The notes beneath the pieces were generated by a model. It was given only the letters and a program-made list of their open reading frames with translations, was not told where the DNA came from and did no database searches. Positions 36,317-62,873 of a stretch of DNA of 64,000 nucleotides are shown here, piece after piece. Positions within the stretch are counted from its first letter, which is position 1. Every line of letters begins with the position of its first letter. The DNA comes from a virus. Both the position numbers and the translations under genes were made by a program. Where the stretch lies: the IMG/VR virus record IMGVR_UViG_3300020162_002681, positions 32,001 through 96,000 of that record; one strand, given 5' to 3'.

Positions 36317-36465
36317 AGGGCGCAGACCAGTTTCAGCTTAACGTGGTAGAGGCTTGGTCTGCTGTTTCGGTTCCTAGTTTGAGCATACTTTCGCATAGGC
36401 TTAAGAACCCTGTTAAAAATCGGATGCCCCAGACTGCAAATCGTTCCCGCGAATACCCATAACAA
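36317..36465 (-). ncRNA. candidate structured ncRNA downstream of portal gene
   Basis: three stem-loop domains with G-U pairs and a GAAA tetraloop on the - strand; own extended -10 promoter. Confidence 0.55.
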
Positions 36466-36484
36466 CTTTTTATATAGAGTGTAA

Positions 36485-36497
36485 TTAATATAACACA
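36485..36497 (-). promoter_or_regulatory. extended -10 promoter TGTGTTATATTAA
   Basis: identical 13-mer to that upstream of the tRNA cluster (40475-40487). Confidence 0.55.
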
Positions 36498-40474: not shown

Positions 40475-40487
40475 TGTGTTATATTAA
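40475..40487 (+). promoter_or_regulatory. extended -10 promoter of tRNA operon
   Basis: TG-T-TATATT about 6 nt before the first tRNA. Confidence 0.6.
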
Positions 40488-40490
40488 CAA

Positions 40491-40571
40491 ATGAGGTACA
40501 TTAGCGACAGTCAGGCTTAAGTGGTTCATACCCACTCACAACAGTCAGTGCAATTCTGACACCTCACCCCA
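40491..40571 (+). tRNA. tRNA-Met(CAT)-like, atypical
   Basis: TGAGGT/ACCTCA acceptor, AGTGG-TTCATAC-CCACT anticodon arm, GTCAG/CTGAC T-stem, encoded CCA. Confidence 0.7.
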
Positions 40572-40575
40572 ATTT

Positions 40576-40658
40576 GGAAGGTTGAACATAGGCACGTTAA
40601 GCTCTTTGCTAAAGAGTCGAGGGTAATACCTCTGTAGATTCGACTTCTACACCTTCCG
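40576..40658 (+). tRNA. tRNA-Ser(GCT)
   Basis: GGAAGGT/ACCTTCC acceptor, TTGCTAA loop, long variable arm, TTCGA. Confidence 0.85.
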
Positions 40659-40661
40659 TTT

Positions 40662-40742
40662 GGAAGAATGCGCTCATGGGGGCAAACGGTCTTGAAAACC
40701 GCGCTAGGGTCACACCTAACAGTTCGATTCTGTATTTTTCCT
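40662..40742 (+). tRNA. tRNA-Ser(TGA)
   Basis: CGGT-CTTGAAA-ACCG, long variable arm, TTCGATT. Confidence 0.85.
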
Positions 40743-40772
40743 TTGGCAATCGATTGCCAAAAACAAAACACC

Positions 40773-40992
40773 CTTCCGAGTGTCTCGGATTGCTTAGTGA
40801 AAGTGGCAGCTTCAACGCTGCGTCTAGCCGCATAAAGGCTAGGCTACCACAGGTGGAGACGGAAGCTAATATTGGTGTTCATAACAATAAGAGTTGCATT
40901 ACGTGAGTATGCAAAGTTGGGGCTGGTAATACTACAGGCTGTCAGAAGGTTCCAAGAACGGTTGCAAAACAGTTGAGAGCTGACCTCTTATT
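40773..40992 (+). ncRNA. candidate structured ncRNA in tRNA cluster
   Basis: two multibranch domains closed by CTTCCG/CGGAAG and AATAAGAG/CTCTTATT; GNRA loops. Confidence 0.6.
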
Positions 40993-40998
40993 TAACTT

Positions 40999-41072
40999 GC
41001 GGAACTAGCTCAATTTGGTAGAGCAAGCCCCTTCCAAGGGAAAGGTTAAGAGTTCAAGTCTCTTGTTTCGCT
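40999..41072 (+). tRNA. tRNA-Gly(TCC)
   Basis: GCGGAAC/GTTTCGC, AGCTCAATTTGGTAGAGC D-arm, CTTCCAA loop, TTCAAGT. Confidence 0.9.
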
Positions 41073-41773
41073 TTTTTAGTAATTCCATATTCCTTGCATC
41101 TATTTCTTATAGTTATATCGCTTACGCCATATATTTTAGAGATTTTTATCATAGAATATTTATTTACAAGGTCTTGTAAGGTATTTCTATCTATGTGAAA
41201 TTTTATAGTTTGATTTTTATATCTATTAGAACATTTTACACATCTCTTAGACTGCCTTAATATATCTAATCCACAATCAACGCATTTTAAATTGGGCTTT
41301 ACTTTAATGTTTTTACCTGCATAATTATCTGTTTGGGAATGGCAATTTGGACAAAGTATTCTTAAATTATCGATTCTATTGTCGTTATTTATACCGTTTA
41401 TATGGTCAAGCTGTAAACTAAGCTTAGCTCCATTCCATTCCCCAAGATTATTGCAAATAGCGCAAGAATAGTTCAAAATACCTTCTTTTACTAGTCTAGC
41501 TTTTAGGTTGGAAGTGTTATTATACTTAGAATTTTCTACTAAGATTAAATCTAAATCTATTTTCGATTTAGGTTGGGATTTTATATATTTCGCCCTATTT
41601 ACATCCAAATTATTCAAACATAAACCATTTTCACCTATGAGTTTTTTAAGGCACTCATAATTTGTGCTGTGTACAGGAACACCGACGTTTGTTAAAACTT
41701 GTTTGAGTGTATCCGACTCATTCAATAGTTTTTGTAGGTCGATAGTACTTAAACTTTTTAATTTTTTACTCAT
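41054..41773 (-). CDS. HNH homing endonuclease with C-terminal zinc finger / HTH
   Basis: CAIC...LQLDHINGINNDNRIDNLRILCPNCHSQT; CxxC pairs. Confidence 0.92.
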   Translation of the reverse strand: MSKKLKSLSTIDLQKLLNESDTLKQVLTNVGVPVHSTNYECLKKLIGENGLCLNNLDVNRAKYIKSQPKSKIDLDLILVENSKYNNTSNLKARLVKEGILNYSCAICNNLGEWNGAKLSLQLDHINGINNDNRIDNLRILCPNCHSQTDNYAGKNIKVKPNLKCVDCGLDILRQSKRCVKCSNRYKNQTIKFHIDRNTLQDLVNKYSMIKISKIYGVSDITIRNRCKEYGITKKAKQET

Positions 41774-41852: not shown

Positions 41853-41923
41853 TCCTTTGTAGTGAAATGGCATCACACGACACTTTGATTGTCGCATTCT
41901 ACGTTCGACCCGTAGCAAAGGAA
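41853..41923 (+). tRNA. tRNA-Gln(TTG)
   Basis: TCCTTTG/CAAAGGA, CGACA-CTTTGAT-TGTCG, TTCGACC. Confidence 0.9.
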
Positions 41924-41933
41924 TTGGGATGCT

Positions 41934-42008
41934 GAGATAGAACCCAAACGGCTAGGGACATGACTGTGAATCATGGTTTAGTGAGTTCGACCCTCACCTA
42001 TCTCCCCA
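41934..42008 (+). tRNA. tRNA-His(GTG)
   Basis: GAGATAG/CTATCTC, CATGA-CTGTGAA-TCATG, C73 plus CCA. Confidence 0.9.
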
Positions 42009-42011
42009 AAT

Positions 42012-42083
42012 GGCTCTCTAGCATAATGGTATTGCACTTGCTTTGTAAGCAAAAGATTGTCAGTTTGATTCTGACGGGAGCCT
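42012..42083 (+). tRNA. tRNA-Thr(TGT)
   Basis: GGCTCTC/GGGAGCC, TTGC-TTTGTAA-GCAA, T-loop TTTGATT. Confidence 0.85.
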
Positions 42084-42124: not shown

Positions 42125-42382
42125 ATGCAATACGCCGCACTCTTAGTCATAGTAGCTCTAGTTGTCTTTATTATCACTCCAAACCTAAAGAAGAGTGACG
42201 ATTCTCCAGCACGTTTAGACCTATTTTTCCGAGAGGTTCAATATAAGCTTGGCTTGCCTAAAAGCGCTGGTCAAGGAGCTGGTACTCGATTCAAACCCGA
42301 AGGTCGTAAACCACCTGAAAAAACACAACCTCAAGGAAGTCGCATAAGCGAAACTGAACCAGAAGTAAAAGAAAAGGACTAG
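42125..42382 (+). CDS. small membrane-anchored or secreted protein
   Basis: N-terminal hydrophobic helix; GAGTR and QGSR motifs. Confidence 0.7.
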   Translation: MQYAALLVIVALVVFIITPNLKKSDDSPARLDLFFREVQYKLGLPKSAGQGAGTRFKPEGRKPPEKTQPQGSRISETEPEVKEKD

Positions 42383-60100: not shown

Positions 60101-62873
60101 TAGAAAGGATAATTCTTTTTTGTTCATTATCCGCAGCTTTCTCTTGTTCTTTACTTTGAGCTTGTAAGGCTTGTAGTTGGTCTTGAAAATCTTGAACTCT
60201 TTCCCGACTTCCAATACCACCCTTCTCTTCTTCACTCTTTATTTTTGCGCGAATACCTTCAAGACGTTTTTCAATTATATCTTTCTGACCTTCAAAAGAA
60301 CTCTTGACAGCTTGAACATCTTCTTCATTAAGAACAATCCCAAGTTGAATTTTCTGCTTTACAGTTTTTTCAGACTCTGTAATAGCTTTAAAATCGCCAG
60401 TCTTTATATTTGCTTGGTCAGTATTGATTTGGGAAGTTAACAGTGCTGTTGACTGGTCTATCTTCTTTTGGAATACGTCATTTTGAGCAGCATTACCATT
60501 GAGTATATTGAAACTTTGACCTAGGTTACTGATTACAGTATTGAGTACTCTCGCTTCTTCGCTCATAGCTTTTAGTTGAGAGCGAGTATCTGTAATACCT
60601 TTTACAAAGTCGTCAAGTCCTGCAACACCCTTAAGTTCCTTTAAATTCTCAGTAAGCTCCTGTACTTCGGGAATACTAGCAGCATTACTATAAGCGTTGA
60701 AAGCTGTGATACCTCCAGCTATCGCTGTGGTGGCGAGGGCAATCCCTCCTCCGACAAGACCTGTAGACAAGGCAAAACTTCCAAGCTCTTTAGCCGCACC
60801 GCCAATAACGTTACGAATTGGTGCAGTAGCTTTACCTAATTTGCTTATTGCTCCCCCTGCTTTATTAAGTAAATCATTATCGCCAGAAGCCAACCCAATA
60901 ACACCACTTACAGTACCTTTGACAGTATTCCCTACTGCTCGACCAGCACGTAGAATTTCACTGCGCTCTGTTATAGATGCAGGATTTTTAACGGGGGCAG
61001 GTTTTGTGACTACAGGAGAAGTTTGTGGTGTCTGTACTTGGGGGGAAGATATAACATCGGCAGCTACTTTTGCGGTATCACTGCCAACCTTAGCAATTTC
61101 GTCATTAACTTGAGTTACAAGCCCCTTAACTCTCTTTACTACAGCACTAGCTAGACGAACTACAGCATCTTCAATCTTTTGAGCTAAGGTCTTAACATTA
61201 ATATCCCCCTCATCAAGTTTCAATGCAGATTTAATTGTCTGACCTAAACGACCAAGATTCTTAAACAGAAAGGAGAAAAATGCAAGAGGAGCGACCACAC
61301 TGAATACGCTACCGATAAACCCAGAGACAGCTTGAAACTTATTAGCTATACCATCAAGTTGACCTGCAAATGTACCAAAACTACTGCTGCTCTTAGTCGC
61401 AAGAACACCAAGCAATGTATTGGTATCTTGGAGGTTCTTTTTGACTTCTTCCCCTACACCAGAGCCAAAATCTTCTACAGCAGCTTGAGACTTATTAAAC
61501 GAAGACCTAAATGCTCCTTCAAGAGTTTGCCCTCTTTCTTTGGAGCTTTGGGTTAATTTATCTTGACCTTGAGTAGTTCCAGCCTCCTCGATAGTGGCTC
61601 GGAAGTTCTTACGGTTTTCACCGCCAGATTGCAACAATGCGTTAGCGGCTTTGACTGCTTCGCTTGAACCAAAGACTTTATTAAGAGCATCACGACTTCC
61701 TCCAGTCGCTTTACCCAAACGTTCAATAAGTTTTACCAAACCCTCTTCTTTAAGAGCGCCAAAACCAAATTGAATAGGCTTACCAGCTTCGTCTCTTAAA
61801 GTACCAAGAGCTTCCTGAGCCTTAGAGCTATTATTGACAATTTCGTTGACAAGAGATTTAATTGCAGTAGAGCCTTCCCCTGCTGAAATACCTTGGGTAG
61901 TAACAAGAGCTAACGAGGTAGCCATTTCCTCAAAGGAAACTCCAGCAGACGCACCAGTTGAGGTTAATTCAGCCGCCTCAGCATTTAATTGGTCAAGGGT
62001 GAGAATACCTACCTTAGTCGTTGCAAAGAGCTGTGCAGCCCGTTTGTCGGCATCTCTAAAGCTGTCACCAAGATTCTTGTTTGCAGCAAGTATTTTAACA
62101 ATACCTTCGTTAGTTCCTTCCAGATTACCGAAACCAACTTCCGAAAGATTTACGGAAGCTTTACCGACACTTTTTTGAGCTGACTTAGAGTTAAAGCCAG
62201 CAGAAGCAATATCATACTGAGCATTTAAGGTTTGTGCAGAATTAGTTGCAAAGTTTGTTTCGCGTTGCAATTCTCGTAATGCTTTGATACGAGCGCCAAC
62301 CACACTCAAGGCAGACTCCTCTGACGAGGTGGTGATTGTGGCAAGTCGGAATGCTGCACTCTCTACTTTGCTGTAAGCTGCAACTGCGCCAATAGACCAT
62401 TTTTGATACGATTGGTTGTCAAAGATAATTTGACTGGCAGTACTGATACGGTTGAACGTGGTATCAGAAGTTTCTTCAAGAATTTTAATGTTGGCAGCAA
62501 ATTCTTTTGTCCCTAGAATCGCTTCACTGAAACTAATGCTTTTACTTACACCCGCAAGACTTTTTAAAGATTGCGCAGCCGCATCTATAATGCTTTTTGC
62601 ACCTTGAAGCTTACTAAAGGCACTACTAATATTTGCAATACCGAATGTGGCATTTACCGCAATAGAGCCAACCGCAGTGAGAGATGTACCTAGCTTAGCC
62701 GTTTGACTTATATTAGACGACCAAGCCCCTGATAACTTTGTAAGCCCTTTTTCAAGCTCTACAACGTTACCAAGCGTACCTTTAATATCGTCCCCAATAT
62801 TTAGAGTGCCTTTATTGATGGCATCTCTAAGCCCTAACTGAGCTGGAGTTGTATCTATTGCTGGCGCTGCCAT
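57102..62873 (-). CDS. tail tape measure protein
   Basis: 1923 aa helical A/Q/K-rich; YDIASAG, AGVSFEEM, GSTAIKS, VFGSSEA TP901-type motifs. Confidence 0.9.
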   Translation of the reverse strand: MAAPAIDTTPAQLGLRDAINKGTLNIGDDIKGTLGNVVELEKGLTKLSGAWSSNISQTAKLGTSLTAVGSIAVNATFGIANISSAFSKLQGAKSIIDAAAQSLKSLAGVSKSISFSEAILGTKEFAANIKILEETSDTTFNRISTASQIIFDNQSYQKWSIGAVAAYSKVESAAFRLATITTSSEESALSVVGARIKALRELQRETNFATNSAQTLNAQYDIASAGFNSKSAQKSVGKASVNLSEVGFGNLEGTNEGIVKILAANKNLGDSFRDADKRAAQLFATTKVGILTLDQLNAEAAELTSTGASAGVSFEEMATSLALVTTQGISAGEGSTAIKSLVNEIVNNSSKAQEALGTLRDEAGKPIQFGFGALKEEGLVKLIERLGKATGGSRDALNKVFGSSEAVKAANALLQSGGENRKNFRATIEEAGTTQGQDKLTQSSKERGQTLEGAFRSSFNKSQAAVEDFGSGVGEEVKKNLQDTNTLLGVLATKSSSSFGTFAGQLDGIANKFQAVSGFIGSVFSVVAPLAFFSFLFKNLGRLGQTIKSALKLDEGDINVKTLAQKIEDAVVRLASAVVKRVKGLVTQVNDEIAKVGSDTAKVAADVISSPQVQTPQTSPVVTKPAPVKNPASITERSEILRAGRAVGNTVKGTVSGVIGLASGDNDLLNKAGGAISKLGKATAPIRNVIGGAAKELGSFALSTGLVGGGIALATTAIAGGITAFNAYSNAASIPEVQELTENLKELKGVAGLDDFVKGITDTRSQLKAMSEEARVLNTVISNLGQSFNILNGNAAQNDVFQKKIDQSTALLTSQINTDQANIKTGDFKAITESEKTVKQKIQLGIVLNEEDVQAVKSSFEGQKDIIEKRLEGIRAKIKSEEEKGGIGSRERVQDFQDQLQALQAQSKEQEKAADNEQKRIILSSQLRKLQSFNSAVPIAVSTSVAFNSSAKAQFNQLKETLDKVFVIDKIDISKVDPQEFSKILPKLQGVLSNITVQADIDPKGAIEGLQRLTKDVRVMQFVASDPTAQKAMDEAFKVATDKILSYNNTVTNSYTKLFSVISGAGAVGGEAIGSATKKSLQGIKGNIEALRASLAAPNISAQDYADRLSKIADLSAEAFSVKNSGQISEELGKRKQLLTFNQGLLEVQKNIVSVFAQESKFGSFSVSLAQAKLAAAEKELSVKQESLAISAREEEITKNNILEAAQAELGNRQKQLQQVLKSGNISVEDSSSSGAANTKIDLANTQAVQQVKDTAKKDQTLAEQSLQKSREATDKGLVKIDDSQITTLIEEQRTKLRNSGRVSNTAKVDKIANEKVNSIVTSNEDGKFINLRELQNLGNGQGDEATKIADLLLANTQKSESSKQSDIDSAKKRASDVVGASDQLKERVNSIDLESAKKVVQQAEQDLKFTVVANRLKQEIGALAETIARNEAAIDASFAGQQRLIDISKGIGDAFSSLGSTASSLFSASSLGSVFSNIGSKLSDRTGQVLLDANKEISKITARLNTVQVVRDRVASANADAKKSGVSNPDLEKQQKDIEKQLKTAKAEADRDLQYIKQRTILEGVNASLERFGAIAKEGADKLDKVANLANARLDLQGRREQTTLQSNQATRGFSNSVLGLFGQNNPAAQALVGRNEILGTIDKTKADKNEAGRTGEKELNTLEVQRQQLLTENLMLTNALTQTQLLGKLVEKIDPTSGIQVGDISSVNQVIGNIPKNIADAQAQTAKSLALNTDTQNVVRQETQSKIRNIDLSGQSQILEIAKNNPTAGLGSPEVFAALRNGINLSRQQPIQQIEERKPFGASFDQTQKELQGIGGNTRDTIKQQAQEYQAFLQKDAKKITNEFAAASPNKPQNPASASSQQNLSVVVNNTISLDGVKTSFSGDSLNKVGAAVGKSGDVISKAFNDFGKQFLDLSKTAFGV

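Follow-up and report, generated by a model that had tools for sequence, protein, structure and literature searches.

The tRNA operon of the virus analyzed here probably contains two distinct small non-coding RNA genes, termed modules A and B, organized as operon cassettes that would be excised by tRNA-processing enzymes and act in trans, with a layout like that known from phage T4. From comparison of related sequences, we assign this interpretation a probability of about 0.6. Module A is a structured RNA gene of 116 nt (40767–40882, + strand), and module B is a conserved RNA of ~110 nt (40883–40998, + strand; core 40886–40992); they are best read as two new families within the known class of small RNAs carried along by phage tRNA operons. 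The feature is real and conserved, but it is ordinary in kind, narrow in distribution and only partly settled in its fold. The window, i.e., the whole stretch of DNA analyzed, comprises 64,000 nt and corresponds to bases 32001–96000 of an IMG/VR virus record, which is complete, 146 kb long and bounded by direct terminal repeats. The nearest cultured relatives of this record are the Pseudanabaena phages Pam2 and PA-SR01, with ~73% nucleotide identity over neighbouring genes.

The operon runs along the + strand and consists of a promoter-like box, a tRNA-like gene with a CAU anticodon, tRNA-Ser(GCT), tRNA-Ser(TGA), a small hairpin, modules A and B, tRNA-Gly(TCC), an HNH gene on the − strand, and finally tRNA-Gln, tRNA-His and tRNA-Thr. 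This arrangement confirms the location given by an earlier sequence-only reading of the DNA, which had placed the feature within a tRNA operon; the feature also lies on the tRNA strand. The first unit of the operon is an atypical tRNA-like gene (40493–40565, +) with a cloverleaf fold, comprising a 5-bp acceptor stem, the anticodon arm AGUGG-UUCAUAC-CCACU, a T-like arm and an odd D region. It was called by neither ARAGORN nor Rfam, and its match in Pam2 (83.6% identity) lies under a “hypothetical protein” annotation. It is followed by tRNA-Ser(GCT) (40575–40659, +; ARAGORN) and tRNA-Ser(TGA) (40662–40742, +; ARAGORN, 85% threshold), the latter also scoring 30.4 bits with the Rfam tRNA-Sec model, under the cut-off of that model. 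Downstream of the modules, tRNA-Gly(TCC) (40999–41072, +; ARAGORN and Rfam, 54 bits) sets the end of B with its 5′ end, and tRNA-Gln(TTG), tRNA-His(GTG) and tRNA-Thr(TGT) (41853–42083, +; ARAGORN and Rfam) make up the remainder of the operon. The HNH-type homing endonuclease gene in the array (41054–41773, −; 239-aa ORF) matches, at the DNA level, annotated HNH endonuclease genes of many phages; it shares 19 nt with the 3′ end of tRNA-Gly and is missing from the other arrays. The tRNA content of the arrays is very different among close relatives.

The promoter-like box TGTGTTATATTA (40475–40486, +) lies upstream of the tRNA operon, and in the arrays of the window and of the contigs L003, L013 and L018 the first tRNA-like gene has the box GTGTTATATTA, usually following a T, on its 5′ side, consistent with a putative promoter role. 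A second exact copy of TGTGTTATATTA is present on the − strand (36486–36497); two copies are within chance expectation (16 of 100 shuffles). This second box precedes an ORF-poor stretch beyond the portal gene (36317–36497, −), which may be another small RNA gene, and models R1 and R2, built for modules A and B, respectively, matched neither module there. Between tRNA-Ser and module A, the operon contains the small hairpin UUUGGCAA-UCGA-UUGCCAAA (40742–40761, +; z −3.4), and UUGGC-N6-GCCAA hairpins occupy a like position in L017 (5254–5269, before A) and L018 (1561–1576, before B). In all three cases the short UUGGC-loop-GCCAA hairpin sits directly 3′ of a tRNA and just 5′ of A or B; it may represent a tiny third module or a processing signal.

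Relatives of the window were gathered by pattern scans and by searches with the neighbouring 632-aa protein and with the portal protein. The family is small, with module A in 8 viral contigs and module B in 4, all from close relatives (IMG/VR exact-pattern scans; the window’s own record is counted). Both modules occur in one copy per genome, always in a tRNA array and on the tRNA strand. Module A alone, running straight into tRNA-Gly, is found in L003/L009, L006/L011, L007/L016 and L017, whereas B follows A without a gap in the window, L010/L013 and L008/L015; the order in L018 is A, tRNA-Ile, small hairpin, B, tRNA-Asp. The tRNA located 5′ of A also varies by contig (Ser, Met or Met-like, Tyr, Pro). 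Because these contexts differ among contigs, A and B behave as separate cassettes of the array, like tRNA genes. In every context, A runs without a gap into the unit that follows, be it a tRNA or B, its NAN tail stopping exactly where that unit begins, and in three contexts A begins 1–2 nt past the preceding tRNA. Most tRNAs in these arrays are spaced 1–4 nt apart.

Identity between the window and the other carriers amounts to 84–99% for A and 90–91% for B, compared to 67–78% for the flanking protein genes, and the two modules are the best conserved stretches of the neighbourhood; this comparison shows strong purifying selection acting on both. On this point the sequence-only reading is supported, the stretch being conserved well above its surroundings and carrying some compensatory changes. 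Model R1 did not find module A in Pam2, PA-SR01 or G005, which are complete or nearly complete relatives, and module B was found neither in G005 (model R2) nor in GenBank phages (blastn). Blastn of A and B against GenBank phages and PLSDB plasmids returned only chance matches of 23–29 nt, the 14 related contigs gathered by portal protein yielded no more copies of either module, and an exact-pattern scan of JGI metagenomes recovered the L003 variant only. Pattern matches in L012 and L014 fall in a coding region and were rejected as chance. A 25-nt pattern taken from the invariant part of A was found in none of 185,579 GTDB species genomes except for one phage contig. This 2957-bp contig, L019 (JBKCEW010000023.1), belongs to a MAG labelled Crocinitomicaceae but shows no difference from the tRNA array of cyanophage contig L018 (IMGVR_UViG_3300008121_000001), and its presence in that MAG is most likely a binning error. 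A and B are dispensable, since complete relatives exist without them, and their distribution is best read as that of accessory genes that Pseudanabaena-type cyanophages acquire and lose along with tRNA genes.

Module A is represented by 7 distinct variants, all 116 nt in length and free of indels, with a mean column identity of 92%; its first 43 nt are nearly invariant. Model R1 scores these variants at 136–143 bits, with a single match per genome. One further R1 match in the window (60360–60453, 19 bits) lies within a 1923-aa ORF and is therefore due to chance. ORFs across module A begin inside a tRNA, in line with a non-coding sequence. Folded alone, the module has a z-score of −2.7 relative to shuffles. 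Hairpin H3 (GCAGC-UUCAAC-GCUGC; 40806–40821, +) has a conserved loop and a closing pair that changes among C-G, U-G and U-A across the variants, providing one compensatory pair. In the adjacent hairpin H4 (40822–40844, +), the 8-bp stem GTCTAGCC/GGCTAGGC displays three compensatory and three one-sided pairs, with every cell of the alignment paired, and encloses a 7-nt loop that is free to vary and occurs in 4 forms. Taken together, H3 and H4 contain 4 pairs in which both partners change, along with several G-C to G-U replacements, and no pair is broken in any variant. The covariation score of module A was reached by 0 of 500 shuffles, and controls with slid partners dropped to 30–48% paired. 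The alignment supports an RNA-level constraint that acts on the + strand in the adjacent hairpins H3 and H4; the + (tRNA) strand is favoured because several U-G and G-U pairs would turn into A-C mismatches in a transcript of the opposite strand. The sequence-only reading had likewise argued for the + strand, and the GNRA loops and G-U pairs bear it out. The covariation in A rests on few independent events, which do not fix the whole fold.

The ends of module A can form an outer stem, with AACACC (40767–40772, +) pairing with GGTGTT (40874–40879, +), the latter strand being invariant and followed by the 3-nt tail. This helix, absent from the sequence-only reading, is invariant except for position 1 in L003, and its pairing probability ranges from 0.5 to 0.96 across all variants; because AACACC/GGTGTT shows no covariation, we can only infer it. 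Near the 5′ end, hairpin H1 (UCCGAG-UGU-CUCGGA; 40775–40789, +) is 100% paired in the 7 variants, with one C-G to U-G change, and is an alternative to long-range pairing with 40855–40867. In ensemble folding, positions 7–25 of A have two alternatives, the local hairpin and a pairing with positions 89–101, and the long-range pairing adopts two registers depending on the variant, set by an AG/UC double change at positions 91–92. The predicted ensembles suggest that the 5′ strand of A may be bistable between H1 and the long-range pairing, and it is plausible that both the outer stem and H1 are real helices. Reading H1 as a terminator on the minus strand was rejected, with the T-run present in the window and L017 only.

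Module B is known from 3 distinct variants that are 90–91% identical and differ by one 1-nt indel, which rules out a coding sequence. Model R2 scores the module at 132–140 bits and matches 4 records only. Its hairpin with a GUGA tetraloop (TTGCA...TGCAA; 40894–40914, +) carries two compensatory pairs (U-A to C-G and G-C to A-U). In 2 of the 3 variants the closing pair of the GTT/AAC helix is gone, and the remaining helices of B are no more than compatible with the alignment. The covariation score of B, computed from 3 variants, was reached by 55 of 500 shuffles, and the module folded alone has a z-score of −0.2, with no thermodynamic signal.

All helices listed in the sequence-only reading were found in the DNA at the positions given, and covariation separates them: GCAGC/GCTGC, H4 and the TTGCA...TGCAA hairpin of B gained support, whereas the other listed helices did not. 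The two helices proposed to close domain A are not conserved. GTCTC/GAGAC is broken at 2 of its 5 pairs in 4 of the 7 variants, and CTTCC/GGAAG shows one-sided changes only, with one pair broken in 5 of the 7. The GTGG/CCAC junction is present, but its changes are one-sided and lend it no compensatory support. That reading also described the stretch as GC-richer than the genome and different from a tRNA, and in both respects it was correct: G+C content is 42–49% compared to 27–40% around it, and ARAGORN made no tRNA or tmRNA call, even at the 85% threshold. The single-sequence fold of 40773–40992 has a z-score of −0.8, with 38 of 200 shuffles equally good, and the region with its flanks gives −1.7 on the + strand and −1.75 on the − strand, so that energy does not discriminate between strands. 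Because this fold is no better than that of shuffles and energy does not tell the strand, the case rests on the relatives.

The proposal of two excised RNAs builds on the position and strand of the modules, their exact abutment to tRNAs, their modular inheritance and the compensation in three hairpins, all of which were observed directly. A and B would be transcribed together with the tRNAs from the upstream promoter of the operon. Removal of the 3′ trailer of the preceding tRNA would then generate the 5′ end, and RNase P would generate the 3′ end by cutting where the following tRNA starts. Excision by the enzymes that mature tRNAs is proposed because the abutment is exact, and the abutment at the 3′ end of A in every context fits the putative release by RNase P. 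Each RNA would be closed and protected by a terminal helix, AACACC/GGTGTT in A and AAUAAGAG/CUCUUAUU in B, and would act in trans as a stable small RNA. Since the first 43 nt of A are near-invariant, we propose a sequence-specific protein or RNA partner for this segment. In contigs where B lies directly 3′ of A, there is no tRNA cut between them, and in the window phage the two modules might stay joined.

The main alternative is that A and B are cis-acting parts of the precursor, namely folding insulators or processing and decay signals that aid the neighbouring tRNAs and have no role once released. In favour of this, A and B always reside between tRNAs with exact abutment; the separate UUGGC...GCCAA hairpin recurs in the same spacers, and related phages dispense with both modules. 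However, the sequence conservation of A goes far beyond the need of a spacer helix, its first 43 nt remaining near-invariant though the upstream tRNAs differ, and most tRNAs of the arrays, only 1–4 nt apart, need no such element. Because conservation is so high, we disfavour the cis-acting spacer and regard it as unlikely. Doubt weighs more heavily still on the idea of one composite RNA of ~232 nt in the window phage, with a reduced form in phages carrying A only, which is close to the single ~220-nt multibranch RNA of the sequence-only reading. In the fold of the whole region the two domains lie next to each other, and A and B are directly joined in the window and two other contigs with no tRNA or obvious cut site in between, but no pairing between A and B is predicted and each module has its own closing stem. 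Four contigs contain A only and a fifth, L018, has tRNA-Ile between A and B, resolving the proposed single RNA into two separable modules and making a composite quite improbable.

Several readings would instead tie module A to a host system. Taken broadly, A could serve the phage to decoy or hijack an RNA-guided or translation-surveillance system of the host, delivered in large amounts through tRNA processing; it may, for example, act as a tmRNA-like template for a tag while lacking a tRNA domain, or be a bistable RNA with an invariant 43-nt 5′ segment recognised sequence-specifically by a host factor. We give this idea little credence. The more specific notion of a message-like, tmRNA-related RNA, with a degradation-tag-like peptide used or mimicked in ribosome rescue, arises from a frame at 40806–40835 (+), GCA GCU UCA ACG CUG CGU CUA GCC GCA UAA, which encodes AASTLRLAA-stop and resembles the SsrA tag. 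The frame opens with GCA and closes with LAA and UAA, the stop falling in the H4 loop; the UAA is in frame in 6 of the 7 variants, and four substitutions are synonymous. A hairpin loop also holds the stop codons of E. coli tmRNA, and AAAGUG, the sequence 5′ of GCA in A, resembles the AUAGUC of E. coli tmRNA. However, A has no tRNA-like domain, G3:U70 pair or CCA end, and its outer stem AACACC/GGTGTT contains no G-U pair at position 3; ARAGORN called no tmRNA, and no Rfam tmRNA family matched at E ≤ 10. TAA is present in all four H4 loop variants, but L018 has it in another frame, with no in-frame stop before the next tRNA. The C-termini differ among variants (LAA, LAV, HQA), and hairpin pairing explains the same substitutions, which renders this reading very improbable.

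The invariant 5′ part of A could also be a mimic of a host CRISPR repeat, acting as an RNA anti-CRISPR or as a single-repeat crRNA with a 3′ end made by RNase P. Cas6-type repeats typically share a similar length, an internal hairpin and a ...GAAAG end, and the 36-nt segment ACACCC-hairpin-...GUGAAAG of A agrees with them in all three. Phage-encoded solitary repeat mimics are reported to exist (PMC10651486). Against this, the exact 25-nt pattern was found in 0 of 185,579 species genomes, bar one mis-binned phage contig, and in no plasmid, and no Rfam CRISPR-DR family matched. Furthermore, the hairpin is 14 nt, not 8 nt, from the end of the putative repeat, conservation extends beyond that repeat, and the “spacer” consists of two hairpins that compensatory substitutions maintain; we consider the mimic extremely unlikely. 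We hold the same view of A and B as small mobile DNA elements (MITE-like) or protein-binding DNA sites. They have terminal inverted repeats (6 bp in A, 8 bp in B), their presence varies among close relatives, and a homing endonuclease gene adjoins them in the window phage, but each is a single copy per genome with no target-site duplication seen, confined to the tRNA array and oriented like the tRNAs. Compensatory changes and G-U pairs also indicate selection on the fold of a + strand RNA, leaving the DNA-level explanation with hardly any weight compared to two excised small RNAs.

Comparison with known families was performed using Rfam 15, in which 4227 families were searched at E ≤ 10 over 241 nt (40760–41000) and also over 1.8 kb. 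This search had been suggested by the sequence-only reading, and it returned no match to A or B, either at gathering score or at E ≤ 10; the families covered included GOLLD, ROOL, YrlA, tmRNA, CRISPR-DR, group I introns and self-cleaving ribozymes. Over 40760–41000, the tRNA family (RF00005) likewise gave no match at E ≤ 10. For a group I intron in a tRNA there was no Rfam match, and the flanking tRNAs are complete. Mimicry of rRNA was considered and rejected: the best local match to the E. coli rrn operon covers 16 of 18 nt in 16S, lacks significance (reached in 4 of 100 shuffles) and is lost in the other variants.

The closest parallel is found in phage T4, whose cluster in GenBank combines tRNA genes and the homing endonuclease gene segB with two RNAs next to tRNA-Arg, rnaD (119 nt) and rnaC (139 nt), with rnaC and rnaD annotated as “small, stable RNA” (“species 1” and “species 2”). 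Like rnaC and rnaD, A and B are two consecutive tRNA-sized RNAs in a tRNA cluster and on its strand, a tRNA is abutted within 1–6 nt, and the cluster contains a homing endonuclease gene. A and B can thus be classed by layout as non-tRNA RNA genes inside a phage tRNA cluster, on the same strand and abutting tRNAs. Unlike A and B, T4 rnaC has at its end a T arm of canonical tRNA type (CCGGGUUCGAAUCCCGG), and the folds differ. No likeness between rnaC/rnaD and A was detected by sequence or model, the best R1 score on the T4 region being 9.6 bits and located elsewhere, and the host and phage group of T4 are unrelated to those of the A/B carriers. The parallel with rnaC and rnaD is one of layout, not of homology.

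GOLLD and ROOL are structured phage RNAs often encoded near tRNA islands (PMC12286853). The sequence-only reading had invoked them, aptly with regard to location near phage tRNA islands, but they are ornate, multimeric RNAs of 500–800 nt, compared to ~110–116 nt for each of A and B, and their Rfam models do not match. With tmRNA (SsrA), A shares a short Ala-initiated frame running to LAA-stop with the stop in a hairpin loop, but tmRNA has a tRNA-like domain and A has none. Y RNAs such as YrlA are small, closed by a terminal stem and sometimes encoded by phages near tRNAs. A and B resemble them as small structured RNAs closed by a terminal stem; the Rfam YrlA model gave only a 15-bit match, located inside tRNA-Gly and outside A and B, and no TROVE (Ro) gene was found in the phage.

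Small RNAs without an explanation, such as T4 rnaC and rnaD, are a long-known component of phage tRNA clusters. The occurrence of two more families, unrelated in sequence and with the same layout, in freshwater cyanophages suggests that phages have repeatedly turned to the tRNA operon to produce RNAs other than tRNAs. Given how narrow the family is, this is at present a modest addition. Module A nevertheless offers a compact test case, with a fixed length of 116 nt, a near-invariant 43-nt segment and close relatives that naturally differ in having or lacking it; its non-carriers include two cultured Pseudanabaena phages.

Antisense targets within the phage genome were limited to one 13-mer and a few 11-mers, which is within chance. 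The 13-mer (G000:9043) is complementary to positions 19–31 of A, and at G000:13163 (+), outside the window, 11 nt complementary to positions 22–32 of A lie directly after a promoter-like GTTATATTAA box and before a gene start; neither site is significant alone. Partner genes were sought in a presence/absence screen of ORFs of at least 50 aa, comparing 5 carrier genomes (that of the window as query and four as subjects) with 3 non-carriers. This co-occurrence screen yielded no RNA-binding partner candidate for A or B, and the A-associated ORFs were a few small ones without a Pfam family. The phage has no RtcB gene and only a sub-threshold match to a nucleotidyltransferase. A 370-aa DUF932 protein encoded outside the window (G000:139813-140925; L096:13813-14925) is present in all genomes, in two alleles that follow the presence of A, being 87–90% identical among A carriers and ~50% identical in the three non-carriers. 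In addition, an AAA_24 (Sak4-like) protein (G000:13569-14504, L095) and an 85-aa ORF just past the tRNA array (window 42125–42382) are each limited to the three B-carrying genomes.
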